From Promethearchaeia archaeon (GTDB lineage Archaea; Asgardarchaeota; Lokiarchaeia; Sigyniarchaeales; SOKP01): DNA of 32,000 nucleotides. Below are positions 2,809 to 17,074 of this stretch, in pieces (positions within the stretch are counted from its first letter, which is position 1; every line of letters begins with the position of its first letter). The position numbers were made by a program, and so were the translations under genes. The stretch is from positions 5,721-37,720 of the forward strand of contig JAWOFX010000083.1 in assembly GCA_046497275.1 (NCBI GenBank), given 5' to 3'. Below the pieces are notes generated by a model. That model did no database searches and had not been told where the DNA came from. It was given only the letters and a program-made list of their open reading frames with translations.

Positions 2809-3864
2809 CTATATTAAATCTTCAGAAGAAATTAGATTAAAAATTATATTCAAAACTTCTTCAATATTATACCCTGTCTTCACGGATGTGAAGAGAAATT
2901 TCCATTGTCTGTCTGAAATACGATCAAATTCAAAAAAATCAAAGATTTCTTGTTCAAGTCTATAAATTTGGGTTTTATCAATATTTTTTCCATTAGAATG
3001 ATTGACTAAGTCAATCTTATTTCCCAAAATAAGTAAGGGGACTTCTTTCAATTCATAACGATTGAGAATTTTCCAAAATTCTCTTTTAGACTCTTCAAAT
3101 TGGAGTTGATTTGAAATATCAATCATAAATATTAAAATATTAGAATCTTGAAGACCTAGAAGCCATTTTTTTCTGAAAGTTCTTTGACCTGGCATATCCC
3201 ATATTGAAAGAAAGCCATCTTTCTCTTTTACATATTCAATATTAAACTTTCTCGTTGGAGTAAAATAATTATCATTAAATTTTCCTGTTTTTATTCTTCT
3301 TACTAAACTCGTCTTTCCAACCTCTTGTATTCCAAATAGAAACACTTTTACAAATATTTGTTCTTGATAATGAAATTCTATTTGAGGTCTTTTTTCAACA
3401 ACCTCATCCCCATATTTGCGTAGACTAATAAAAAGTGTAATCAGTAGGTTTTCGATTTCCATCTCATCTTCAAAACTAAAACTAGTTTCAGTATTAAGAT
3501 ATTCATGGAGTTGTTCTAAAAAGATGTCTTTATAATCGTATGGATTATCTTCTTTTTCAAAAATTAATCCAAGACTAATTCTCTTGTTAATGGAAGTAGA
3601 GTATATATTTAATCCATCAATAATTTGGGGAACAGGGTCATTAATGATATAGCTATTATGTGAATTCCTATTTTTTAACGTGTGAGATTTCCCGTTATTT
3701 CGATCTCGATATTTATTGATTAAATCTCCATGATCTTGACTATAGATTATCTTTCGAATTAAATCCCTTTCTTCAATATTAATCGAAGAAGGATAGCTAT
3801 AGATATTTAACTGATCCAGATCTGTCAGATTCTTACCCTTCAATAAAAAGATATTTAATAGCAA
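2809..3864 (-). CDS. Small GTPase (Arf-like) with N-terminal ~165-aa putative longin/uDENN-like domain
   Basis: TTG start. G1 GIQEVGKTS, G2 TPTRKFNIE, G3 WDMPGQ, G4 NKID and G5 TSVK are all present. The GTPase call is strong; the N-domain fold is an inference from the strand/helix pattern. Confidence 0.9.
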   Translation of the reverse strand: MLLNIFLLKGKNLTDLDQLNIYSYPSSINIEERDLIRKIIYSQDHGDLINKYRDRNNGKSHTLKNRNSHNSYIINDPVPQIIDGLNIYSTSINKRISLGLIFEKEDNPYDYKDIFLEQLHEYLNTETSFSFEDEMEIENLLITLFISLRKYGDEVVEKRPQIEFHYQEQIFVKVFLFGIQEVGKTSLVRRIKTGKFNDNYFTPTRKFNIEYVKEKDGFLSIWDMPGQRTFRKKWLLGLQDSNILIFMIDISNQLQFEESKREFWKILNRYELKEVPLLILGNKIDLVNHSNGKNIDKTQIYRLEQEIFDFFEFDRISDRQWKFLFTSVKTGYNIEEVLNIIFNLISSEDLI

Positions 3865-4073: not shown

Positions 4074-5453
4074 TTAAACGTCTGAATTTTCTTTGGATCC
4101 TTCGTCTTGCTCTTCTTGTTCTTCAGTCTCTTCCGAACTGACTGGAGTTCCACAAATTGGGCATTCAGTCCATCCTTCTCTCAAACCATAACCGCAGTTA
4201 GAACATTCCTTCATATTCTCTTCAGGCTCCCATTCTGGTATATCTAAGCCTCCTTGTCTCTTTTTAGCTAACTCTGTTAATTCATCTTCTGTCCATACTT
4301 CCATTCCCTCGGGTAATCCTGAACCTCTCTCCTCTTTGATTTTTTGGAGTTCATCTTCTGTCCAAACTCCTACGCCCTCTGGGAGTGATGATGAGGCTCT
4401 CTTTCTAGATTCTTCAGCTAATTCTTCAGCAGTCCATTGCTTTAATTCCTGTCCTCCTGGAGTAGTCATTCCTGTCCCTTGTTGAGAAGGCTGACTCTGA
4501 GCAGGATCTTGTGAAGGACTTACTTCTAAAGAGGGAGCATCATAACAAGCTGCTGAAAGTCTTAAGGCAGATTCAAAACAAACCTCGAAATCTTTTTCTT
4601 TATTGGATTCATTCATAACCACAATTAAAGTTGTTTTATCTGAGGGTTGTGGCAAAGCGAGAGCCGAAATAGATATTTCTGAATCTATACGTCCTGACTC
4701 CAATCCAGAAGTTAAATTCTTCAGAACATTAAGTAAATCATCTCGATTCATTAAAAAATCGCAAATAGGTTCACCATGACGTTGATACCCTTCATGATAA
4801 CGGGCTAAATGACTTTTAGTTGCGGTTAATTCTAGAGATTCAAGAATTGCAGAGATATATGCAAAATTATATGATTTCTTAGCTTTCTCTTCAGATTCTT
4901 TAAATTCATAATCTAAATCCAGCTCCCCCATAATAGGTGCGAAAAGAGGATCCTCGTCCTTTAAATTTCCGAATATGGTTGTCTTAGAAATTACAGTCTT
5001 AATCTCTCCGTAATAAGCAATAATATCATCGTATAATTCAATTGAATCATCTTTTAAAATTATTTGAGGAGCAGTTCTGAATAATACTTCCCCCCAAGGC
5101 ATCTCTTTTACAGGGATGATCGCATAACATACCTTCTCAATATAATCTTCAAGTATTTTTTTATATTTCTTAAACAAATTATTTAATTCTTTTTTCTCTT
5201 CCGCATTCTCTTCTTTCTCAATCTCCTCATTTACGCGATTTATGAATAATTTTAACGCTTCGTCATTTTTTTTAGCTACACCTCCAAAATATTTTACTTC
5301 TCCCACAATATTATCTTCTAGAATGGATGTTGCATTAGTTAACATTTCTTTTTGAAATTTTGAAAGTTCATCCTTTGGAGTAAGAAATATATAATCGAGG
5401 ATATCAAATTCAGACGTGTCAATTATTTCCTTAAACTTTTGTTGAACAGACAT
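4074..5453 (-). CDS. Hypothetical protein with low-complexity linker, W-T-x-E/D-E-L repeats and C-terminal double zinc ribbon
   Basis: 459-aa ORF with ATG start. C-terminal CSNCGYGLREGWTECPICG and an acidic tail. The N-terminal ~300 aa are not recognised. Confidence 0.75.
   Translation of the reverse strand: MSVQQKFKEIIDTSEFDILDYIFLTPKDELSKFQKEMLTNATSILEDNIVGEVKYFGGVAKKNDEALKLFINRVNEEIEKEENAEEKKELNNLFKKYKKILEDYIEKVCYAIIPVKEMPWGEVLFRTAPQIILKDDSIELYDDIIAYYGEIKTVISKTTIFGNLKDEDPLFAPIMGELDLDYEFKESEEKAKKSYNFAYISAILESLELTATKSHLARYHEGYQRHGEPICDFLMNRDDLLNVLKNLTSGLESGRIDSEISISALALPQPSDKTTLIVVMNESNKEKDFEVCFESALRLSAACYDAPSLEVSPSQDPAQSQPSQQGTGMTTPGGQELKQWTAEELAEESRKRASSSLPEGVGVWTEDELQKIKEERGSGLPEGMEVWTEDELTELAKKRQGGLDIPEWEPEENMKECSNCGYGLREGWTECPICGTPVSSEETEEQEEQDEGSKENSDV
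4230..4436 (-). repeat. Intragenic imperfect 21-24 aa repeat (LPEGxxVWTEDEL)
   Basis: Trp codons at 4434-4436, 4362-4364, 4293-4295 and 4230-4232 (spacing 72, 69, 63 nt). TTCATCTTCTGTCCA occurs twice on the + strand. Confidence 0.85.
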
Positions 5454-6054: not shown

Positions 6055-6351
6055 ATGAAGATTGTGACGGTAAATGTACCAGAGTCATATCTCGACGCTA
6101 TAGATAAATTAACGGGGAATAAGGGTCTATATCCTTCGCGCTCAGAACTTATTAGATGTGCAGTGAGGGATTTTTTATTAAAAGAGTTAAGTATGGCTAA
6201 AAAGCTCAAAAAATATACCATGAAGGGAGAAGATGGAGAAGACCTTCCTGAGAGTGATTATGTACGTATACCAGTAAGTAGCAAGAATGAAAAAAGTGAA
6301 TCTATTAATGATTTTAAAACGTATAAAATCATTAGGAGACTTGAATATTAG
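6055..6351 (+). CDS. Ribbon-helix-helix (CopG/Arc/MetJ-like) transcriptional regulator, paralog 1
   Basis: Strand KIVTVNVP, helix [10 protein letters not shown], turn GLYPSRS, helix [11 protein letters not shown]; plus a ~50-aa C-terminal extension. Confidence 0.92.
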
Positions 6352-6690: not shown

Positions 6691-7551
6691 ATGTATAATA
6701 ATTTATATTTAATAATGAACAACAATAGAAAATGGGTATTGATAACGGGAGCAAGTACAGGAATCGGTCGAGCTTCTGCGAAATATCTTGCCAACAACGG
6801 GTTCAACGTATTCGGAGGTGTGAGGAATGAAACCGATTTTCAAGATATAGCAAAATTAGCAAATATTCACCCAATTAAGCTTGATGTGACAATTACAGCG
6901 TCTATTCAAAATGCCTTCAATACTATCAAGAATCAAAATATCGATCTTTATGCTCTTATAAATAATGCGGGTATCGCACGAGCGGGTCCTCTAATGGATC
7001 TCCCCATTCAAGACCTTAGAGAGCAATTTGATGTAAATGTGTTCGGAGTTCATAGAGTGACGAGAACGTTCTTTCCCCTCCTTAATAAGAAAATAGGGAG
7101 AATAATAATGATCAGTAGTGATAGTGGATTTTTCGCAACACCTTTTTTTGGTCCATATTGTGCGAGTAAGTTTGCATTAGAGGGATATAGCGATTCGTTA
7201 CGGAGAGAATTATTGCTCTGTGAAATGAAGGTAATTCTAATCCAACCAGGTCGGGTAAAGACTCCTATCTGGGATAAAGGTAAAAGCTTGTTAGAACGTG
7301 AAGGGAAATCATTTTTTATGAAGTATGCAAAAAAACTGGGTGAAGAGGCTATAGAGAAGGGAAAAACTAAAGGACTTCCACCAAGAGAGGTGGCAAGGGT
7401 TGTTCATAAAGCATTAACAAAAAAGAACCCGAAATTACGATATTTAATTGCTCCAAGTACCTTTAAATATCGCTTAATAAAACTTCTCCCTGAAAAATGG
7501 GTTGATAAGATGGTCAAGAAAGAATATGAAAAAATTGAAGAAAAATTATAA
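6691..7551 (+). CDS. Classical short-chain dehydrogenase/reductase (RDH/17beta-HSD-like), probably NADP(H)-preferring
   Basis: TGASTGIG, NNAG, catalytic Ser (MISS) and YCASK. Arg after beta2 (GVRN). The true start may be the ATG at 6715. Confidence 0.95.
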   Translation: MYNNLYLIMNNNRKWVLITGASTGIGRASAKYLANNGFNVFGGVRNETDFQDIAKLANIHPIKLDVTITASIQNAFNTIKNQNIDLYALINNAGIARAGPLMDLPIQDLREQFDVNVFGVHRVTRTFFPLLNKKIGRIIMISSDSGFFATPFFGPYCASKFALEGYSDSLRRELLLCEMKVILIQPGRVKTPIWDKGKSLLEREGKSFFMKYAKKLGEEAIEKGKTKGLPPREVARVVHKALTKKNPKLRYLIAPSTFKYRLIKLLPEKWVDKMVKKEYEKIEEKL

Positions 7552-7815: not shown

Positions 7816-8106
7816 TTGAAGATTGTTACTGTAAATGTTCCAGAGTCATATATAGATGTAATTGGTAGGTTGGTTGGAGAGAATGGTCTTTACCCTTCTA
7901 GGTCAGAATTAATAAGATGTGCCGTTCGAGAATTTTTAATAAAAGAGTTAAAAATGGCCAAAAGTATTCAAAAATATAATACTAAGTCAGAAATGCAACA
8001 TTTCGATGATAAGAAGTATGTGAGAGTTCCTGTAGAGGATTTAAATGAAGATGAGCCCGTAAGAGAATTTAAAACCTATAAAATTATTAAAAGATTAGAA
8101 TATTGA
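7816..8106 (+). CDS. Ribbon-helix-helix transcriptional regulator, paralog 2
   Basis: 39 of the first 49 residues are identical to the 6055 protein (hand alignment); it shares the C-terminal FKTYKII[RK]RLEY. Confidence 0.92.
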   Translation: MKIVTVNVPESYIDVIGRLVGENGLYPSRSELIRCAVREFLIKELKMAKSIQKYNTKSEMQHFDDKKYVRVPVEDLNEDEPVREFKTYKIIKRLEY

Positions 8107-8381: not shown

Positions 8382-9263
8382 ATGATATTGCTTTTATATT
8401 TCGATAGAACATTAGGACCTCGGGTATTTTTAACGAGTCCAAGCGATTTAGCAGAGAATTTGGAAAAACAAAATGTAAACAAAATCAAATCACTTCTTGA
8501 TTCGGGAGAAGAGGGCTTTTTCTCACATTATTTTTCGCAAGAATTAAAGACTGCCAATTGGATTTTTAAAATTAAATCAGATTGGGCGAGAGGGAGACGT
8601 GAAATGCTTATGATTACTATTATAGCTCCAGAAGAAGAGCCAGACTTTTCTTATTATGAAGAATTGTTATCGAAATTTATTGGAAAAATAAAGGGAACTT
8701 CAGGTATTTTCAAAGGTCTTTATATAGATTCGCAAATAGAGGGAGAAATGAATCAAATCCAAAAATCCTATCAAATACTAAAAGAAGAAGTAAATAACTT
8801 ATATAAAATCGTTTCAGTAAAAGTAATTGAAACCGAAGGAGATCTAATATCTCTCGAGACTCTTAAAAAGAGAAGAAAGATTGATCTTTCAAGCCAAGTT
8901 ATAAATAGAATTAGCAAGATTTCCAATAGTGCTGAAAATTGTTTTATTGTTTTTAGAACGAGAGGAGAATCCACAAAAATCGACATTATACCAGTTAAGA
9001 CTGAAAAAGTAATCCGGTTAGCCATAATATTTGGTGAACAGATGACAGTCCGGATTGTCCAGCAAATTGGTCAAATTTTTACTAGATATGAAGATTCTGT
9101 GTCATTAATATTTACTTCAGGGATATGTCAAGAGATAGATAGGTGTATTTATGAAGTTTATATTGATCCAAATATGGAAAAATTAAACAATATTATCGAA
9201 GAGATCTATAAAATCGAGGGAGTACTTTCGATTGAAGTAAAATTAATAGATATTGATAATTAA
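8382..9263 (+). CDS. uDENN/longin-like domain protein with C-terminal ACT domain (possible AbrB-like middle domain)
   Basis: N-terminal LLLYFDRTLGPRVFLTSP resembles the NPRL2/uDENN start (FFSEFHPTLGPKITYQVP). Residues ~210-290 follow the ACT beta-alpha-beta-beta-alpha-beta pattern, ending IIEEIYKIEGVLSIEV. Confidence 0.7.
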   Translation: MILLLYFDRTLGPRVFLTSPSDLAENLEKQNVNKIKSLLDSGEEGFFSHYFSQELKTANWIFKIKSDWARGRREMLMITIIAPEEEPDFSYYEELLSKFIGKIKGTSGIFKGLYIDSQIEGEMNQIQKSYQILKEEVNNLYKIVSVKVIETEGDLISLETLKKRRKIDLSSQVINRISKISNSAENCFIVFRTRGESTKIDIIPVKTEKVIRLAIIFGEQMTVRIVQQIGQIFTRYEDSVSLIFTSGICQEIDRCIYEVYIDPNMEKLNNIIEEIYKIEGVLSIEVKLIDIDN

Positions 9264-9305: not shown

Positions 9306-10544
9306 ATGGTGAGATTTATGGAGTGGGGCCTTATCGATAAGGAAAATTTTAAGGGAAAGAATACCTTCGATATTCCAATAAAAAGATGGGATCCCCTTTC
9401 TACCGTAGAAATTTCTACCAAAGATTTTGGGGCACATAATAGACAGAGGAGATACCATGGCCATTATGCTTATTTAAGCCCGATCAGAGGAAAAAGACCC
9501 AAAGGATTCAAAACTCCCGAAAAGAAAAGTCAGTTATTAGATTGTTCAGAGATTATACTTTCTAAAACTAAAGATATCTTTACGAGTATCACTGAAGGAG
9601 AACCCATTTTCGATGATGATGGTAATCAAATTGGTGATGGATATACAATAATAATATGTGAAGATACAAAGCGCAGAGACAATCCTTTTTCTGATGAGCC
9701 TCACAAAATCAAAAAAGTATCTGAAAATACTAAAGCAGTTACATTAATAAATAGATATCCCGCTATGGCTCGTGTAGTGGATCCTATAGTAGAAAACTAT
9801 ATCAGAAATAATTTACCTCGACATTTGAAACTTGCAAGAGGGATTAATTTAGTGACTATCTCACGAGACTTTTATCCTTCGATGTGTTTTAGGTTAATTC
9901 CAAAAGAAATTTTGACTGCGATATTATTATCAATGAAAGAAGCTATTCTATACTGTGTTCAAGAAGCCATTCAAAAAGATTATTATGATATTCCAGTGAC
10001 TCCTTTCTTTAATATCGGTATGAAAGTAGGGGGGAGCCAGCCAAGGATTCATGGGCAAGTATATATAGATTTAAGTATGGATGGACATGGTAGTCGTTTG
10101 GAGAATTATCTGAATGCATTTAAAGAAATGAAAATATGTCATTTATGCGAAACGACCCACGGAAATACAGATCGAATTATTTTAAAAACAAAATATTGGA
10201 CATTTTACACCTCAGGCAGTCCAGTGAGAAATTATCATGTACGATTTCACCCAAATGAGCATGTTCGTAGATTTACACAATTAAATATCAATCAACTTTC
10301 AGAATTAGCAGATAATTTGAAGAAATTGCTTCAAGCTATGGATGATATTGATATTGACAAAAATAGGAATATTATGATGAATTGTTGTCCCTTTCATTAT
10401 GATGCTGATTTCCATCTCTTTGGAGATATAATCCCCCATGAAATTATTGGAGGAGCAGAAATGGCTGAGGATATGAGGGTTGCGAGAAAATTACCTAATA
10501 TAGCCGCTGCAGAGATTCGTGATGCTATAGAGAAGTATATATAA
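9306..10544 (+). CDS. GalT-like HIT-superfamily sugar-1-phosphate nucleotidylyltransferase (possibly ADP-glucose phosphorylase-like)
   Basis: RGKRP, NRYPAM, and FFNIGMKVGGSQPRIHGQ (cf. GalT NxGxxxGxSxxHPHxQ). Second-half CHLCE and HVRFHPNEH, C-terminal GGAEMAED. Confidence 0.8.
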   Translation: MVRFMEWGLIDKENFKGKNTFDIPIKRWDPLSTVEISTKDFGAHNRQRRYHGHYAYLSPIRGKRPKGFKTPEKKSQLLDCSEIILSKTKDIFTSITEGEPIFDDDGNQIGDGYTIIICEDTKRRDNPFSDEPHKIKKVSENTKAVTLINRYPAMARVVDPIVENYIRNNLPRHLKLARGINLVTISRDFYPSMCFRLIPKEILTAILLSMKEAILYCVQEAIQKDYYDIPVTPFFNIGMKVGGSQPRIHGQVYIDLSMDGHGSRLENYLNAFKEMKICHLCETTHGNTDRIILKTKYWTFYTSGSPVRNYHVRFHPNEHVRRFTQLNINQLSELADNLKKLLQAMDDIDIDKNRNIMMNCCPFHYDADFHLFGDIIPHEIIGGAEMAEDMRVARKLPNIAAAEIRDAIEKYI

Positions 10545-10825
10545 TTTGATTTATATTCTCTGAATTTAAATAGATAAAGAATATATAAATTTCGAGAATG
10601 GGCATATAATTGGATGAATTTAATATTATTTATTTATCTGTTTTTACACAAAAATTTTTAAGACATTGTTTTATTTATTGGATATCCATTTGAATTATTT
10701 TTCAATTTAAAAATCTATATTTAGATAATATAGCTTTTTTAAGTTTAAAAATCGAAATAAAATAGTAATATTATTATTTTCTTCTTTATAGCGAACTTAT
10801 TAATTAGAAAAGATGGTAATTAGAT

Positions 10826-11983
10826 ATGGCAAATCAAGACTCTTGGTCTGCAGTAATATTAGCTGGGGGGCTAGGAACTCGTTTGAAACCTTTGACAAGC
10901 GAAGTTCCGAAACCGCTTGTCCCCGTCACAAATGTTAATATGGTTGATTATGCCATCGCACATTTAATATATGCGGATATAAAATATATATTAGTCGCTC
11001 TCGCCTATATGGGAGAGAATTTAAAAAATTATATAGAGCGCACTTGGACTCCAGAAAAACTTGGGGATGTAGAATTAGAATGTGTGATACAAGAAAGCAA
11101 GGGTACAGCAGATGCGGTGCGATTGATGACGGATAAAATTCAATCAAAGAATTTTGTTGTGTCAATGGCCGATATCGTGACTAATTTACCGATGCGTAAA
11201 TTTATGGACTTTCATGAAAGTAAGGAAGGAATAGCAACGATCTCTATGAAATCGGTGGAATCTCATACTTCACAATATGGTGTTGTTTTATTGGATAAGA
11301 ATCGTAAAATATATCTTTTTTTAGAAAAACCTGGGCCTATGGAATTATATGTTAGTAGTATGGCTCAAAGAAATGATCTTTATCTTCACACAAATGTAAT
11401 TAACACAGGAATTTATTGTTTTAATCGAGATATTTTTAATGTATTAAACTCTACTGATATGATGGATTTTGGCGGGGAAGTATTTCCCTATTTATTAGAA
11501 AATCAATATGACCTATATGGTTTTGTAAAGGATTATTACTGGTTAGATTGTGGGAATCCTCAGACATATTTATGGGCGAATTGGGATCTATTAAGAAAAT
11601 ATGCGTGGCCAATAACACCAAATGGAAAAGAGTACGATGGTATCTTTGTTATGGGCATTATTAACTCAGGCGAAGGAGTAAGGATCGAAAAACCTAGTTG
11701 TTTTGGGGAATACGTGCAATTGGGACAGAATGTTAAGATAAAGGAGTTGACATCCATAGGAAATAATGTGAGAATCGGGGATGATACATCAATTGAGAGA
11801 AGTGTCGCGTGGGATAACGTTGAAATAGGTGCGGGTTGTGAAATTACCGAATCAATAGTCTGTAATGATTGTAAGATAGGAGATAATGTTATACTTGATA
11901 GAGCTATAATAGCGCCCCATTGTAAAGTAAGTAATGAAAAGGAATTAATCGATAAAACCCTAAACCTCGGAGAAGAAGTATAA
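10826..11983 (+). CDS. Sugar-1-phosphate nucleotidyltransferase (mannose-1-P guanylyltransferase/GCD1-like) with C-terminal left-handed beta-helix
   Basis: LAGGLGTRLKPLT...PKPLVP, GTAD, YGVV, FLEKP, INTGIY, YWLDCG, followed by hexapeptide repeats (IGNNVRIG, IGDNVIL). Confidence 0.93.
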   Translation: MANQDSWSAVILAGGLGTRLKPLTSEVPKPLVPVTNVNMVDYAIAHLIYADIKYILVALAYMGENLKNYIERTWTPEKLGDVELECVIQESKGTADAVRLMTDKIQSKNFVVSMADIVTNLPMRKFMDFHESKEGIATISMKSVESHTSQYGVVLLDKNRKIYLFLEKPGPMELYVSSMAQRNDLYLHTNVINTGIYCFNRDIFNVLNSTDMMDFGGEVFPYLLENQYDLYGFVKDYYWLDCGNPQTYLWANWDLLRKYAWPITPNGKEYDGIFVMGIINSGEGVRIEKPSCFGEYVQLGQNVKIKELTSIGNNVRIGDDTSIERSVAWDNVEIGAGCEITESIVCNDCKIGDNVILDRAIIAPHCKVSNEKELIDKTLNLGEEV

Positions 11984-12009
11984 TTCTCGTTAAAAGGAAG
12001 GAATAAATA

Positions 12010-15000
12010 TCATTGAGATTCTTCAGAATACTCTAAAAATGTGTTAACCTTATAATCGGCTTTCTTTGCCAATAATTTCCATTTTTTGATGATATTAATA
12101 ATTTCTTCAACATCCTCTTCTTTTTGATCAGCATCAGCAATCAATCTATTTAGTAATGTAATAAAAGCAAACCAATCGCAGAAAGTGGAAAATGCCTCAG
12201 CACTAAACCATAAAGTATCTTGATATCGGTTCAAATCCAAATATTGTTGAGCATCTGAATCACTAAATAGTTGTTTTAAGATAATTGTGATTTTATTTTC
12301 TCTCAAAACTTCTTTAGTTAGGAGATTTTGTTGTTTTGTGAGCAGTTTGATTAAAGTCGTTGCTTGAGTAGAATTTAGGTTTTCCTCTGATTTCAAACCA
12401 TCTAGAGTTAATTGTATGTATTTTGATAATTGGAATTCATCTATCCAACTACGCGATAATAAGTTATAATTCTTATCAGAAACGATCTTTCCTAATTGGT
12501 GGATGAATAACCATGATAACAGAATTCCCCATTCAAATTTAGTATTTGGAATGATTCCTTCAAGATAATCTATATATTCTTTATCAAGATCAATCTTTTT
12601 TATTTCAGAATCAATATTTAACGCTAGTTTAAGTTTTTTGAGAACTTTTTCTTTAACAATTGCAATCTCATTTTCTCCAGAGGAATATTTCTTTACTTCT
12701 GAAAGAAAATCAGAAAATTTAGTAGATAGACGATCAATAATTTTATCGGGATTTTTCGAACCGATTAATTCTTCAAATTTTCGGACATTAACTAATTTTT
12801 CAAAGGGAGAATGTAATGGTTGATATATTACTTGCGTTAATGTTTGATCAATATTTTGGACACCTCTTCCATTCAATAAATCATGTAATTGCGCATAATG
12901 GAAATATTCATCATCTTGCACCACTCTAAAATCTAAGAAAGAATAAGTATCATATGCTTTTAATTCAACATATAAACCCTTCTCGTGAATTTCCTTATTT
13001 CTCCTAATATATTCTTGTCCTGAATTATAATCTTTAAAAATACAATATCCTTCTTCTGGAAGATTGAGCCCCTCACCAAGAGTCTTTTGGATTATCTTTT
13101 TATCATCATCATCCTTAACAGCGAATCCGACAGATTGTCTGATAAAACCTTTCGTTTCTGCATATTTGTTATGATAAATGATCAGACCTCTTTCCCCATC
13201 TATACGATTAGAAAAGGCATACACATCCTCATTAACATAATTCCCAGTAAAAAAATCATACAACAGAAAATTTTGAACATCAGCAAACAGATAACGTTTT
13301 TTCATTAATGGGAATATTTGATTTTCATGTCTATGAACTAAGTCCCAATCAATTGGTTCATCCCAGTAGGAGCGTTTAAATTCCATCCCATATTTTTCCT
13401 CAAACCCTTGAATTTGCCCGTGTCCAAACATAGGTAATCCCGGCATAGTCACCAGGAGAGTACATGCTCCAAAATATTTGTCTCCGTCACCAAATTGTTT
13501 GATTGCTGTTTCTTCATCTGGATTGTTCATGAAATTGACAAATCTTTTCAGAATTTTCGGATCAAATCCTAAGGTGTTTTTTAAAACCGCCCGAAATTTC
13601 GCGTTATCTTCATCACTTAACATGTTCATAAAAGAAGAATTATAAACGCGATGCATTCCTAAGGTTCGTACGAAAAATCCTTCAAGCAACCAAAATGCTT
13701 CCGCAATAAGGAGAGTATCAGGATTTTCCTTATTAATTCTATCTACCACTTCTCGCCAAAACTCCTTTGGCATTTTTTCATAAAACTCTTCTTTGGTCAT
13801 CCCGTGCTCAGCTCTTGAAGGAATTGCACCGCCAGTGCCTGGCTGAGGAAACCATAATCTTTGAAAATGTTTTCGAGTTAATGTCATTGCGGCATCAAAT
13901 CTAATAATTGGAAAAAGATGAGAGACATGAAGGATAGTTTGAATAACTGTTTCTCTAACTTGTGGCAATAAATAATTTAATTGAGCGGTATCATTCCATG
14001 GATAACTAGTTCCATCATTCCCGTGATAAATATATCTGATATCATGATTTCTGTAATCTTCTCTTTTAAAAGCTACGGCGGCATCACTTCTCGTGAAATA
14101 TTTATCCTCTAAAAAGATCCCAACATTCGGATCTCCGGAAAGATTCTCTCCAGAATAACTATAGGAAGGAAACGGTTTGTGGTTAAGTTGAATAAACCAG
14201 TCCGGATGTTCCATCGTCCATTTGGAAACGATTGCCGTATGATTTGGAACCATATCGCTTGCTAGTCTTATTCCCCGTTCATTAGCTCTTTTCTTAAGAT
14301 CCTCATAAGACTCTTTTCCACCTAAATCATAAGCTATTATATAATCATAGATAGAATAAGCACTTGCGGCAGCTTCAGGATTTCCACACCATTTTTTTAT
14401 TGTTTCTGAGGCCTTCGAACGTTCCCATATGCCAATTAACCAAAGCGCATTAAAACCCCAATCTCTTAATTTATCCAATTCTTCATTTGGTATTTCATGA
14501 AGTTTCGAAATTAAGCGATTATATTTTTTCGAAAGCTGGTGAATCCATACATATGTATGTTTGGCAATCATGCAAACATGAGGCATCCAATCTTTATCAG
14601 GAGTAAATCTTTCCTCTAAAACATCATATTCGATGACCTTCGACTCTCCCGATCCAATCCCTCTAAACATCTCTTCTTCTCTTATTAGATCAAGAGCGAT
14701 CAAAATCTTTAAGCTGAATTTCCCCAAGAAACCAGACCATTTTTCATGAATATATTCTAATTGTTTCTTTATAGAATGTGGTTCTTCGTTTATCGGGGTC
14801 TCTAACAGTTCAATTAGAGTTTGTTTTGTTTGGGAGAATTCTGGCAATTCATCAAAAAAATTCTGAATTTCTTCACAAACTTCTTTATAATTTGTTTCTT
14901 TCTTTAATGGATCATCACTAAAAAGCTCCATGTAAGGAGAAAAGGCAGGATTATTATTTGCTAACCATAAACTAATGAATTCTGTTTGAATTATCTTTTT

Positions 15001-15414
15001 CCTCTTAATATCGTTCTTTTTTTCCTCTAAATATTCTTTTGCATTAATTTTATTATTATATACACGTTCCGGAGGAAATTCTTTTATTAATGTTTTAGAA
15101 ACTTTCATTAATTTTTTCTCGCCGATGGTTTCTTTGAGATATTTGAAAAGCTCTTCATTAAGAGATATATTTTCAATCTGTTTGTCATATAAATTAATAA
15201 TATAATCCATTATCTCATATATTAATGCCATTCCGTTTATTTGACCGATTTTTAAAGCTAATTCTGGAAAATTTATTAAATCTTTTTCTTGATTTAATCT
15301 CTGAGCAAATAATCTTACGGGATATACTTCTCCGTTGAAAACTAGATTGCCTTCATCTGAGATTTCAAAATCTTCCAATTTATATTTATTCCGAGCTTTC
15401 CGAGAAATTTTCAT
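12010..15414 (-). CDS. Large GH13 (alpha-amylase family) glycoside hydrolase/transglycosylase
   Basis: GH13 regions: GFNALWLIG, DMVPNH (I), RFDAAM (II, nucleophile Asp), AEAFW (III, acid/base Glu), MNNPDE (IV), TMPGLPMFGHGQ. 1134 aa with long N- and C-terminal extensions. Confidence 0.9.
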   Translation of the reverse strand: MKISRKARNKYKLEDFEISDEGNLVFNGEVYPVRLFAQRLNQEKDLINFPELALKIGQINGMALIYEIMDYIINLYDKQIENISLNEELFKYLKETIGEKKLMKVSKTLIKEFPPERVYNNKINAKEYLEEKKNDIKRKKIIQTEFISLWLANNNPAFSPYMELFSDDPLKKETNYKEVCEEIQNFFDELPEFSQTKQTLIELLETPINEEPHSIKKQLEYIHEKWSGFLGKFSLKILIALDLIREEEMFRGIGSGESKVIEYDVLEERFTPDKDWMPHVCMIAKHTYVWIHQLSKKYNRLISKLHEIPNEELDKLRDWGFNALWLIGIWERSKASETIKKWCGNPEAAASAYSIYDYIIAYDLGGKESYEDLKKRANERGIRLASDMVPNHTAIVSKWTMEHPDWFIQLNHKPFPSYSYSGENLSGDPNVGIFLEDKYFTRSDAAVAFKREDYRNHDIRYIYHGNDGTSYPWNDTAQLNYLLPQVRETVIQTILHVSHLFPIIRFDAAMTLTRKHFQRLWFPQPGTGGAIPSRAEHGMTKEEFYEKMPKEFWREVVDRINKENPDTLLIAEAFWLLEGFFVRTLGMHRVYNSSFMNMLSDEDNAKFRAVLKNTLGFDPKILKRFVNFMNNPDEETAIKQFGDGDKYFGACTLLVTMPGLPMFGHGQIQGFEEKYGMEFKRSYWDEPIDWDLVHRHENQIFPLMKKRYLFADVQNFLLYDFFTGNYVNEDVYAFSNRIDGERGLIIYHNKYAETKGFIRQSVGFAVKDDDDKKIIQKTLGEGLNLPEEGYCIFKDYNSGQEYIRRNKEIHEKGLYVELKAYDTYSFLDFRVVQDDEYFHYAQLHDLLNGRGVQNIDQTLTQVIYQPLHSPFEKLVNVRKFEELIGSKNPDKIIDRLSTKFSDFLSEVKKYSSGENEIAIVKEKVLKKLKLALNIDSEIKKIDLDKEYIDYLEGIIPNTKFEWGILLSWLFIHQLGKIVSDKNYNLLSRSWIDEFQLSKYIQLTLDGLKSEENLNSTQATTLIKLLTKQQNLLTKEVLRENKITIILKQLFSDSDAQQYLDLNRYQDTLWFSAEAFSTFCDWFAFITLLNRLIADADQKEEDVEEIINIIKKWKLLAKKADYKVNTFLEYSEESQ

Positions 15415-15685
15415 AATTTATGTAAGGATCTGCAAAAATGATAAATTTATAGTTCCTTTCTTTTAAGTTGATTTTTTTAATTAATTAAATTAATTGAATT
15501 TAAGTATTCTTTATTAAATATATAAATTAACTGAGGGACCTTTTTGAAGAACTTAAAGTAACATTGAAAAACTAAGGAAAATATAAAAAAAAGATAAATT
15601 GTAAATAGCATAAAACTTTATTATACTATATTTAGTAAATTCAATAAAGGATTATTTAATAAGTAGGAATTCAGAGAAATTTATT

Positions 15686-17074
15686 ATGGAAGTTAGTGAA
15701 ATTAATAATTTATCAAAACTCCTTCGAAATGGGAGAATAGTTGGAAGGGCTAATTTTGTATTCACCCCAGAACTTGCAGCAGAAATTGGTGTAGTTCATG
15801 GGAGTATGTTTCAGGAAAATGAATCAATTGTATTTGGGAGAGATTATCATTCAGATTCGAGAATGTTGAAAAGAGGATATTCCTCGGGCTTTATGTCGAC
15901 GGGTGCTAATCTCTTAAATTTATCAGATTGTACAGTTCCTCTTCTTCAGTTTACTATAAGGAGATTTGGAGCAAGTGGAGGTATTTATTTTAGTGGAGGT
16001 CATTTATATTCCGAAGATGTAGGGATAAGATTTCTTGACGCCCAAGGAATAGAGATTTCTCAACATGAAATGGATAGAGTTCTTGAAATGTATAATAATT
16101 ATCCAAAAAATATAAGAAGGGTTGATCCTAATAAAATTGGGAGATTAACCGCAATACCTCAGACCGAGGATATATATATTAAATCTTTACAACAATTTGT
16201 AGATAAGAAGAGATTAGCGGAACATGATCTAAAAGTCGTTGTGGATTGTTCATATGGACCGACGGGAAAGATAACTCCTTTATTATTAAATGAACTTGGA
16301 ATTGAAACTATCGCATTGAATACTCATTATAGGCAAAGAGATTATCCCGTTCCAAATATAAAAACAATAAGAAATACTGCAGATATTGTGAAAGCATCAA
16401 ATAGTCATCTTGGAGTATGTTTTGATGTAGATGGTTCAAGAATATTGATTGTTGATGAAAATGGATTAGAAATTAGTTTTGAAGATTTACTAATGTTATT
16501 CGTATCATATAATAAAAGAATTCAAAATTCTACAGGAAGTACTATCGTCACAACTCCTGCAATCTCATCAGTAGTCAAAGAATATATCGAAGAAAGTGGA
16601 TTTCCTTTGAAAACAATCGAAAATTTCCCAGGTGAATTATCAAGACAAATAAGAGAAGAAAGAGCATGTTTTGCAGCTTCCGATACCTTAAAATTTTATT
16701 TTCCTAATTATGCACCATTCTCTGATGGAAATTTTATATTGCTTAAGATCTTAGAGATTATGACCGAACAAAATGATTTATTAAGCTCTTTGACAAGGGG
16801 GTTTCCAAAAGGAATAAAAGTGAATAAAACAATTCCTATTTCCTCTGATATTATCGATAAAATTCATAATAAATTGAGAGAAATAACAGAGAATAAAAAT
16901 TATACCTTCCATGATATTATAAACGAATTAAAAATTATCCAAGACGATGTATATACCAACATCAAGGTTGCTCTTTATAGAGATGCCCTTTTACTTTCTG
17001 CAGAATCAGATAATAAAGATAAAGCACGAAAAATGATTTTAGAAATGGAAAAAATGATCGCTGAGATCCAGTGA
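15686..17074 (+). CDS. Alpha-D-phosphohexomutase (PGM/PMM) fold protein with degenerate active site
   Basis: FTPELAAEIG, FGRDYHSDSRML, LKVVVDCSYG and CFDVDGSRI are family landmarks. The phosphoserine motif TASHNP is replaced by SGGHLY. Confidence 0.88.
   Translation: MEVSEINNLSKLLRNGRIVGRANFVFTPELAAEIGVVHGSMFQENESIVFGRDYHSDSRMLKRGYSSGFMSTGANLLNLSDCTVPLLQFTIRRFGASGGIYFSGGHLYSEDVGIRFLDAQGIEISQHEMDRVLEMYNNYPKNIRRVDPNKIGRLTAIPQTEDIYIKSLQQFVDKKRLAEHDLKVVVDCSYGPTGKITPLLLNELGIETIALNTHYRQRDYPVPNIKTIRNTADIVKASNSHLGVCFDVDGSRILIVDENGLEISFEDLLMLFVSYNKRIQNSTGSTIVTTPAISSVVKEYIEESGFPLKTIENFPGELSRQIREERACFAASDTLKFYFPNYAPFSDGNFILLKILEIMTEQNDLLSSLTRGFPKGIKVNKTIPISSDIIDKIHNKLREITENKNYTFHDIINELKIIQDDVYTNIKVALYRDALLLSAESDNKDKARKMILEMEKMIAEIQ

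Follow-up and report, generated by a model that had tools for sequence, protein, structure and literature searches.

An Asgard archaeal protein that joins an NPRL2/folliculin-type longin domain to AbrB-like and ACT-like domains, and its small-GTPase gene neighborhood

Domain architecture and predicted dimer

The window analyzed here is the whole 32,000-nucleotide stretch of contig JAWOFX010000083.1 from a Promethearchaeia archaeon (assembly GCA_046497275.1), and the gene under study encodes a protein, P0001, whose N-terminal residues read MILLLYFDRTLGPRVFLTSP and whose three parts resemble, in order, a longin, an AbrB and an ACT/NikR domain (Table 1). The open reading frame (ORF) is a real, conserved and constrained gene. 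It has 74 full-length homologues of about 293 residues (E <= 2e-46), every named one of which comes from a metagenome-assembled genome of Lokiarchaeota/Promethearchaeota, and a 50%-representative library contains 305 matches; a 53-sequence alignment has 28 invariant positions and a mean column identity of 56%. The host genome measures 3.85 Mb and is 98.9% complete. Pfam and NCBIfam scans assigned no family to the whole protein or to any of 39 isolated middle domains, and none of three profiles found a significant match among PDB sequences, the sole informative row being NPRL2 at E 1.2. The label “sugar-specific transcriptional regulator TrmB”, attached by JGI to the homologue P0045, was unsupported by any search made.

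The AlphaFold2 (AF2) model, computed with this 53-sequence alignment as input, has a mean predicted local distance difference test (pLDDT) score of 86.6. Within residues 1-145 it contains strands 2-8 and 12-19, helix 29-41, strands 45-50, 56-65 and 73-82, and helices 89-105, 109-114 and 123-145. The middle part of 60 residues consists of short helices (158-164, 171-180) and two hairpin strands (186-194, 197-205), and residues 209-290 form a β-α-β-β-α-β unit. The domain order that we adopt, longin 1-147, AbrB-like 148-207 and ACT/NikR-like 208-293, is supported with unequal strength for its three members. The initial annotation, made from the letters of the sequence, had drawn the same three segments at 1-143, ~155-206 and 210-290, so that only their limits shift slightly.

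For the longin domain, VIA, an all-against-representatives structure search run with residues 1-149, returned as its best match, with Z 12.8 (rmsd 2.6, 135 aligned), chain 6nzd_H from the lysosomal folliculin complex. Chain 8fw5_B, which the PDB sequence search identified as NPRL2 of GATOR1, also scored Z 12.8, and was followed by 8adl_S from the yeast SEA complex (Z 12.2) and 8yqg_B, the longin of a Lokiarchaeota Roadblock-Longin protein (Z 11.7). The generic longins AP2 sigma, VAMP7, Lst4 and DENND1A reached Z 9.3-9.6, about 3 Z below the top matches. Foldseek with P0001 also returned GATOR1 and FLCN complex chains, and both VIA and the DSSP assignment of the AF2 model give the longin fold β-β-α-β-β-β-α-α. 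The DENN domain of FLCN and SMCR8 and the NPRL2-specific C-terminal domain are absent, residues 148-293 being AbrB-like and ACT-like. Of the earlier label “uDENN/longin”, the longin half therefore stands on the NPRL2, folliculin and SEA matches, and “uDENN” is imprecise because P0001 has no DENN part.

Longins of the NPRL2/folliculin/SMCR8 class are the catalytic half of the eukaryotic longin GTPase-activating protein (GAP) complexes for Rag and Arf GTPases. In P0001, G12 and P13 of the β1-β2 loop are invariant in 62 diverse copies of the longin domain, and R70, G71 and E74 of the β4-β5 loop are at least 90% conserved in the same copies and invariant in the fused family. The profile search of the PDB aligned the GP region to NPRL2 residues 11-38 at E 1.2, not significant alone, and the F.x4-5.GP opening that had been likened to NPRL2 is borne out to the extent that the invariant G12-P13 falls within this alignment. 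In the profile register G12-P13 corresponds to NPRL2 G20-P21, and therefore Arg78, the published arginine finger of NPRL2 (as cited in PMC8213707), falls on R70; the spacing from the GP motif is 58 residues in P0001 and equal in NPRL2 (G20 to R78). R70 may thus be equivalent to NPRL2 R78, and the topology of the longin sheet suggests that its loop adjoins the GP loop. A 2025 study reports that a GP motif before the second strand and a neighboring arginine finger are specific to the GAP-type longins FLCN, NPRL2, SMCR8 and C9orf72, that the GP motif is absent from non-GAP longins, and that the pair also occurs in some Asgard longins (PMC12290439).

The same type of longin recurs in many other proteins, where Pfam places directly after it an Arf-type G domain or PAS/histidine kinase modules; the Liu et al. 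2020 preprint names this class NPRL2-like longin fusions (10.1101/2020.10.19.343400). The host genome holds four GP-longin profile matches, namely P0001 and three others, at least two of which are fused to G domains. We found no description of the longin-AbrB-ACT architecture in the searchable text of the literature. The architecture is new while its kind is known, because longin fusions of the NPRL2-like class are already well established among Asgard archaea.

The C-terminal domain matches both ACT and NikR structures. In VIA its matches are NikR 2ca9_A (Z 11.7), the aspartate kinase ACT domain 3tvi_A (Z 11.5, rmsd 1.6, 76 aligned), the Rel ACT domain 6lxg_B (Z 10.8), the PGDH ACT domain 1ygy_A (Z 10.5) and the AHAS small subunit. 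In Foldseek, ranks 1-13 are all NikR, with a top E of 1.6e-5 and TM 0.76-0.82 on isolated C-domain chains. The Pfam scan gave no PF01842 (ACT) match for P0001. These fold matches, with the profile comparison to AbrB-ACT proteins given below, uphold the earlier assignment of an ACT C-terminus, and the two cysteines noted then on the β2-β3 hairpin are indeed there: in SGICQEIDRC, C249 ends β2 and C255 starts β3 of the AF2 model. In fused and standalone relatives, even those of 22-35% identity, G247, C249 and E258 never vary and at least 90% keep C255 and Y257, which gives the domain a G-x-C...C-x-Y-E signature with a loop of 5-7 residues. The family keeps C249, C255 and E258, with no conserved His in this domain. 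Because the D-x-P-G loop of canonical AbrB-ACT proteins is lost and the conserved hairpin is Cys-based, we consider a metal, cluster or thiol-redox site more likely than a pocket for amino acids, and the pattern of conservation suggests that the Cys/Cys/Glu hairpin may be such a site. For the same two reasons the proposed likeness to amino-acid sensing by CASTOR1 is not supported in detail.

The AbrB-like assignment of residues 148-207 is weaker, but the lines of evidence converge. Folded in isolation, the middle domain has a pLDDT of 92.9. Only 15 of 48,161 chains reach Z >= 2 against it in VIA, and these include VapB (5k8j_A, Z 3.1), AbrB-N (1yfb_A, Z 2.9, 52/52 aligned), Sso7c4 (5itj_A, Z 2.8) and SpoVT (2w1t_B, Z 2.1); the scores are low, and among the 15 matches to this predicted structure AbrB-type folds appear clearly enriched. 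Foldseek with the isolated domain returned nothing at E <= 0.001. In hhalign, the middle domain matches 25 Lokiarchaeial AbrB domains at 54% (E 1.3e-4, 40 columns), in the expected register and with I-x-I-P aligned.

Related genomes also encode AbrB-ACT proteins of ~135 aa, with PF04014 and PF01842 in 7/7, which match NF006352. Residues 146-293 taken together with standalone relatives align to these proteins at 94.2% (hhalign, E 1.2e-7) over 122 collinear columns starting at the R-G-R-I-V-I-P core, a score driven by the ACT half. P0001 itself has no NF006352 match at E <= 0.01, and P0203, a standalone relative of the Cys type, matches that model over its whole length at E 4.2e-4 and 20.4 bits, where the curated cut-off is 140 and a canonical member scores 92.5 bits. 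The best explanation, in which we place the same evenly divided confidence as in the functional reading that we favor below, is that the last 146 residues represent an archaeal AbrB-ACT regulator in diverged form. The middle segment had been likened to an AbrB/SpoVT swapped hairpin; of all the earlier calls this was the weakest, with no Pfam match and a profile match of 54%, and it is sustained by the collinear match to PF04014+PF01842 proteins, the AbrB-type folds among the 15 and the predicted dimer contacts.

The homodimer prediction for P0001 passes, with a score of 0.67, whereas the highest-scoring of 3 controls reached 0.00. Among proteins whose solved structure is a pair of one chain, 20/30 attained the pass mark, as did 1/23 of those solved as single chains, counts that hold only roughly because our own alignment was used as input. 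Contacts agree between runs to at least 98%, and the partner chain has a pLDDT of at least 86. The clearest contacts join strand 150-157 to 186-191' of the other chain (152-191', 154-188', 156-186') and 198-202 with itself across the axis (200-200'); in the prediction, they are the interdigitation of a swapped-hairpin dimer, and the interface also takes in ACT-like residues 246-260 and 289-293. Since AbrB and ACT/NikR oligomers are solved, the pass may partly reflect likeness to those structures. Altogether, the three folds and the AbrB-ACT homology bear out the proposed union of a prokaryotic regulator of the ligand-sensing type with a eukaryote-type longin. The findings named beforehand as counting against it, namely a non-longin N-terminus, a non-ACT C-terminus or an already characterized family, were none of them obtained.

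Gene neighborhood and distribution of the module

A small-GTPase gene lies within 5 kb of the fused gene in 6/6 independent clades with enough flank, and is adjacent in 3; three short contigs are uninformative for neighbors. By clade, the GTPase is 4.5 kb away in the divergent arm in the window and L001, 2.7 kb away for P0073, adjacent, divergent and Rag-like for P0091/P0094, upstream with a 2-bp gap for P0103, 2.5 kb away for P0083 and 213 bp downstream for P0085. The background is 49 Arf-like genes per 3.85-Mb genome, or ~0.13 per 10 kb.

In the window, the GTPase is an Arf-like protein that we infer to be a candidate client of the longin domain. Its 170-aa N-terminal domain matches no known family and was rejected as a GP-longin: BLASTP found nothing, and the protein is not among the four longin-profile matches of the genome. 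The adjoining gene, which sits next to the GTPase in L001 too, encodes a 198-aa protein that matches V4R weakly and, below threshold, the C-terminal half of MsvR, a redox-sensing regulator (NF053755, E 1.1e-6). Elsewhere, the Rag-like GTPases of L041, L042 and L067 (Gtr1_RagA ~1e-27) are divergently paired with GP-longin/AbrB-ACT genes and share a C-terminal extension of ~100-130 aa, possibly a roadblock domain as in Rag/Gtr.

The AbrB-like-ACT module also exists alone. The host genome has one fused copy and three standalone genes, two of them with the Cys pair. Across the phylum the module occurs in 102/151 sampled genomes, mostly as proteins of 140-160 aa and in up to five copies per genome; the fused form (~300 aa) is limited to four genera within this sample. 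Standalone members examined keep the G-x-C...C-x-Y-E hairpin, except the one paralogue of the host genome without the Cys pair. Canonical PF04014+PF01842 (PRK08577) proteins occur in these genomes side by side with the standalone members, which differ from them and together form a widespread, unannotated Asgard family. L041 presents a split form, in which the gene for a GP-longin protein of 477 aa (hhalign 99.8%) stops 4 bp short of one for a standalone AbrB-like-ACT protein, with a Rag-like GTPase (Gtr1_RagA, E 7e-28) divergently upstream. A general linkage of the standalone module to GTPases or longins was rejected, since among 20 loci a GTPase was present in 3/20 and a GP-longin in 0/20, and the split form therefore represents a special sub-lineage. 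The metagenomic protein P0186 (122 aa) has an L7Ae/L30e-like N-terminus that runs into the last 45 residues of a P0001-type ACT-like domain (64% identical to 248-292), and probably arose through chimeric assembly or a frameshift in gene calling.

Between the GTPase and P0001 lies a gene for a protein with three W-T-E-[ED]-E-L repeats, which resemble short docking motifs, and a zinc ribbon. Its product is 36% identical (E 3e-83) to that of L044:3429-4916, the gene directly upstream of the distant member P0083, and L001 has a 520-aa gene at the matching place, which makes it a conserved neighbor of ~460-520 aa. As a GP-longin it was rejected (hhalign 0.5%).

Immediately upstream of P0001, a ribbon-helix-helix (RHH) gene occupies the same place in L001 and is missing from L004. 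A 104-aa gene upstream of the P0073 homologue was tried as an RHH protein and rejected; the RHH neighbor is therefore clade-specific. The window has a second RHH paralogue (63% identical, E 6e-43), and the two flank an SDR gene; because the syntenic L001 has one RHH gene and no SDR gene, we attribute the twin arrangement to local duplication or insertion. Sub-threshold RHH matches are the haloarchaeal cell-division regulator CdrS (NF058555, E 1.9e-9) and aCcr1. Downstream, the GalT/HIT-like gene, probably co-transcribed with P0001, has a 416-aa counterpart at the matching place in L001. It opens a run of sugar and sugar-nucleotide genes (9306..17074) with an NTP_transferase, an alpha-amylase-domain protein and a PGM/PMM, and NTP_transferase and GHMP kinase genes also flank the distant homologue P0085 (L068). 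These neighbors are a possible hint at the ligand.

Table 1. Positions of the features discussed, counted in the window unless a contig or locus is named.
Feature	Position	Strand	Basis or remark
Longin-AbrB-like-ACT-like gene (P0001)	8382..9263	+	293 aa, stop codon included; ORF, homologues, AF2
NPRL2/FLCN-type longin domain, residues 1-147	8382..8822	+	ββ-α-βββ-α-α topology; VIA matches
GP motif G12-P13, β1-β2 loop (between strands 2-8 and 12-19)	8415..8420	+	Invariant; aligns with NPRL2 G20-P21
A69-R70-G71-R-R-E74, β4-β5 loop; R70 candidate arginine finger	8586..8603	+	Conservation and GP spacing
AbrB/SpoVT-like swapped-hairpin dimerization, possibly DNA-binding, domain, residues 148-207	8823..9002	+	Fold, hhalign, dimer contacts
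ACT/NikR-like β-α-β-β-α-β domain, residues 208-293	9003..9260	+	VIA, Foldseek, hhalign
β2-β3 hairpin, residues 246-260, SGICQEIDRCIYEVY; candidate metal, cluster or redox site	9117..9161	+	Conservation
V4R-like protein, 198 aa	2013..2609	-	Weak match
Arf-like small GTPase, 351 aa, 170-aa N-terminal extension	2809..3864	-	PF00025 E 1.9e-29 to 3.9e-29, best Arf match in genome; conserved in L001
459-aa protein, three repeats (QWTAEEL, VWTEDEL, VWTEDEL), then C-terminal zinc ribbon	4074..5453	-	No family
RHH paralogue	6055..6351	+	
SDR gene	6691..7551		
RHH (CopG/CdrS-like) protein	7816..8106	+	PF01402 E 1.8e-6; 275 bp upstream of P0001 gene
GalT/HIT-like protein, 412 aa	9306..10544	+	42 bp after P0001 stop; weak HIT match; GalT NF008724 E 1e-7
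NTP_transferase with eIF2B-type LbH	10826..11983		
Alpha-amylase-domain protein, 1134 aa	12010..15414	-	
PGM/PMM	15686..17074		
Standalone AbrB-like-ACT genes of the host genome	C60:21783-22181; C69:7209-7604; C156:60373-60687		
Rag-like GTPases of other loci	L041:2364-3299; L042:1342-2547; L067:4542-5753	-	Gtr1_RagA

Weighing the possible functions

We favor the reading that P0001 is a dimeric, sensor-coupled regulator, probably a GAP, of the neighboring Arf/Rag-like GTPase, and our belief in it and our doubt are about evenly balanced. Specifically, the AbrB-like swapped-hairpin domain would tie two chains into a symmetric dimer, and the ACT/NikR-like domain would carry the Cys-Cys-Glu hairpin at or near the dimer interface. 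The dimer would present two free longins, which may bind the neighboring Arf/Rag-like GTPase and stimulate GTP hydrolysis through R70, and a metal, Fe-S cluster or oxidant at the Cys/Glu site may alter the dimer geometry and with it the access to the longins or their activity. What the analysis shows is the gene, its three folds and motifs, the predicted dimer, the split arrangement and the proximity of GTPase genes; that the longins bind GTPases and act as GAPs, what the ligand is and which way the signal runs, we infer.

Several observations weigh against the scheme. Eukaryotic longin GAPs operate as longin-longin heterodimers, the longins of P0001 lie outside the predicted interface and make no longin-longin contact, and no partner longin was identified (the genome has three other GP-longin genes, and no pairing run was made). 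The equation of R70 with NPRL2 R78 has topology and equal spacing as its sole basis. In the C-terminal domain, the D-x-P-G glycine loop (β1-α1) of the AbrB-ACT relatives is not kept in the wider family, and there is no support for the Cys pairs of the two chains meeting. In the middle domain, PF04014 matched neither P0001 at E <= 1 nor any of 39 isolated middle domains at E <= 10, and hhalign of this domain alone against a 7-sequence AbrB-ACT profile gave 15% in the wrong register. The neighboring GTPases vary by clade, being Rag-like with a C-terminal extension, plain Arf/Ras-like proteins of 180-190 aa, or N-terminally extended, and the one in the window is 4.5 kb off, on the opposite strand and non-adjacent. 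Lastly, AbrB-type domains normally bind DNA, which fits a transcription factor at least as well.

That P0001 is mainly a transcription factor is the most serious of the alternatives, and one that we nevertheless hold to be unlikely. The AbrB-like dimer would bind DNA, the ACT-like domain would sense a ligand, and the longin would be an input module that docks a GTP-bound GTPase or another partner; expression of, e.g., the GalT-like and nucleotidyl-transferase genes downstream would then follow GTPase state or ligand. Where known, AbrB/SpoVT/MazE domains bind DNA, the 148-293 module is homologous to AbrB-ACT regulators, and basic residues 162, 165 and 176 are conserved; in the hhalign register, however, the Arg/Lys of the AbrB helix (R22/K23 of the AbrB-ACT proteins) is replaced by I174/N175, and neither a Pfam AbrB match nor any operator or DNA evidence is at hand. 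The next gene, 42 bp downstream, belongs to a sugar-nucleotide cluster whose NTP_transferase recurs in a distant clade, and the standalone module is widespread without GTPase linkage, so that its ancestral role would have been independent of GTPases. Against this stands the longin itself, which keeps the GP and Arg catalytic-type motifs that mere docking would not need. A transcriptional role of the AbrB-like part may also coexist with GTPase regulation.

It is less probable still that the longin acts as a guanine nucleotide exchange factor (GEF) or as a small-GTPase scaffold or passive platform, the role of the majority of longin and roadblock domains (TRAPP, Mon1-Ccz1, MglB-like), with the AbrB-ACT part serving only as a dimerizing and regulatory base. 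Longin domains serve mostly as GEF platforms (PMC10933270), such platforms are as a rule dimeric and P0001 is predicted to be a dimer, and the linkage to GTPase genes cannot tell a GAP from a GEF. The best fold matches, however, are GATOR1 NPRL2, folliculin and chains of the SEA GAP complex rather than the longins of TRAPP or Mon1; non-GAP longins reportedly lack the GP motif (PMC12290439); and an invariant Arg sits in the loop that would adjoin it. Finally, a generic protein- or ligand-binding longin with no GTPase role, whose GTPase neighbors reflect the ~50 Arf-like genes of Lokiarchaeial genomes, would agree with two short contigs that lack a GTPase and with the finding of Tran et al. (PMC10933270) that operons generally do not contain the GTPase and longin genes, but it is very improbable given a GTPase in 6/6 clades with enough flank (3 adjacent) versus 3/20 standalone loci and ~0.13 expected, and given that other proteins carry this longin domain and a G domain on one chain.

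A bolder version of the GAP reading, to which we attach little credence, takes P0001 as a one-chain prototype of eukaryotic nutrient signaling at the Rag/Arf switch, in which the activity of a longin GAP towards a neighboring Rag/Arf-like GTPase would depend on a metal, Fe-S, redox or metabolite site within the ACT-like domain of the same chain and the AbrB-like dimer would also bind DNA. If true, sensing, GTPase control and transcriptional output would lie within 293 residues, and Asgard archaea would already have linked a GATOR1/FLCN-type GAP to the sensing of small molecules before the origin of eukaryotes.

Asgard longins of the NPRL2/FLCN kind with the GP and Arg motifs have been noted before; in the literature searched, no activity was reported for them and they have no known client GTPase or input signal. 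The P0001 family is useful here as a small soluble protein in which a candidate catalytic longin is fused to a sensor-type module, with a split form that encodes the same two parts side by side and a candidate client GTPase that is often the adjacent gene. With these features, the question whether longin GAPs and their metabolic coupling predate eukaryotes becomes testable in vitro with few recombinant proteins. The analysis also defines the widespread AbrB-like-ACT family with its G-x-C...C-x-Y-E hairpin.

Comparison with known systems

With the archaeal AbrB-ACT proteins (PF04014+PF01842; NF006352/PRK08577, ~135 aa, annotated “hypothetical protein”), P0001 shares the order and size of the two domains and the 94.2% match over 122 columns. 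It differs in having lost R-G-R-I-V-I-P and D-x-P-G, gained G-x-C...C-x-Y-E and placed a longin in front. NikR, the top Foldseek match (VIA Z 11.7), has the same plan of a small dimer domain of the DNA-binding type followed by an ACT-like domain with conserved residues (His/Cys-type in NikR) on β-strands at the oligomer interface; its first domain, however, is an RHH and its ligands are three His and one Cys, whereas P0001 has an AbrB-like domain and two Cys with a Glu, and the two share no sequence similarity.

With CASTOR1 the likeness is conceptual, an ACT-fold sensor placed in the pathway logic of a longin GAP and a Rag-type GTPase. No CASTOR1 match occurred among the matches listed, the best 50 per fold search. 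Eukaryotes keep sensor and GAP on different proteins, which GATOR2 connects, and the conserved site of P0001 is Cys-based rather than an amino-acid pocket. The Asgard NPRL2-like or “FLCN-SMCR8-type” longins (10.1101/2020.10.19.343400; PMC12290439; 8yqg) share with P0001 the domain class, the motifs and the fusion to prokaryotic signaling domains; an AbrB-like plus ACT-like partner with a Cys/Cys/Glu hairpin is not mentioned in any of the text searched.

Relative to the longins of NPRL2, folliculin and SMCR8, P0001 lacks a DENN or NPRL2 C-terminal domain, no equivalent of NPRL3, FNIP or C9orf72 was identified, and it is predicted to homodimerize through its prokaryotic AbrB-like and ACT-like part; the sequence match is not significant (E 1.2) and its GAP activity is putative. 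What it has in common with them is the longin fold at Z 12-13, the GP motif, an Arg in the β4-β5 loop at a spacing equal to that of NPRL2, and an association with Rag/Arf-like GTPases, which for P0001 takes the form of gene linkage.

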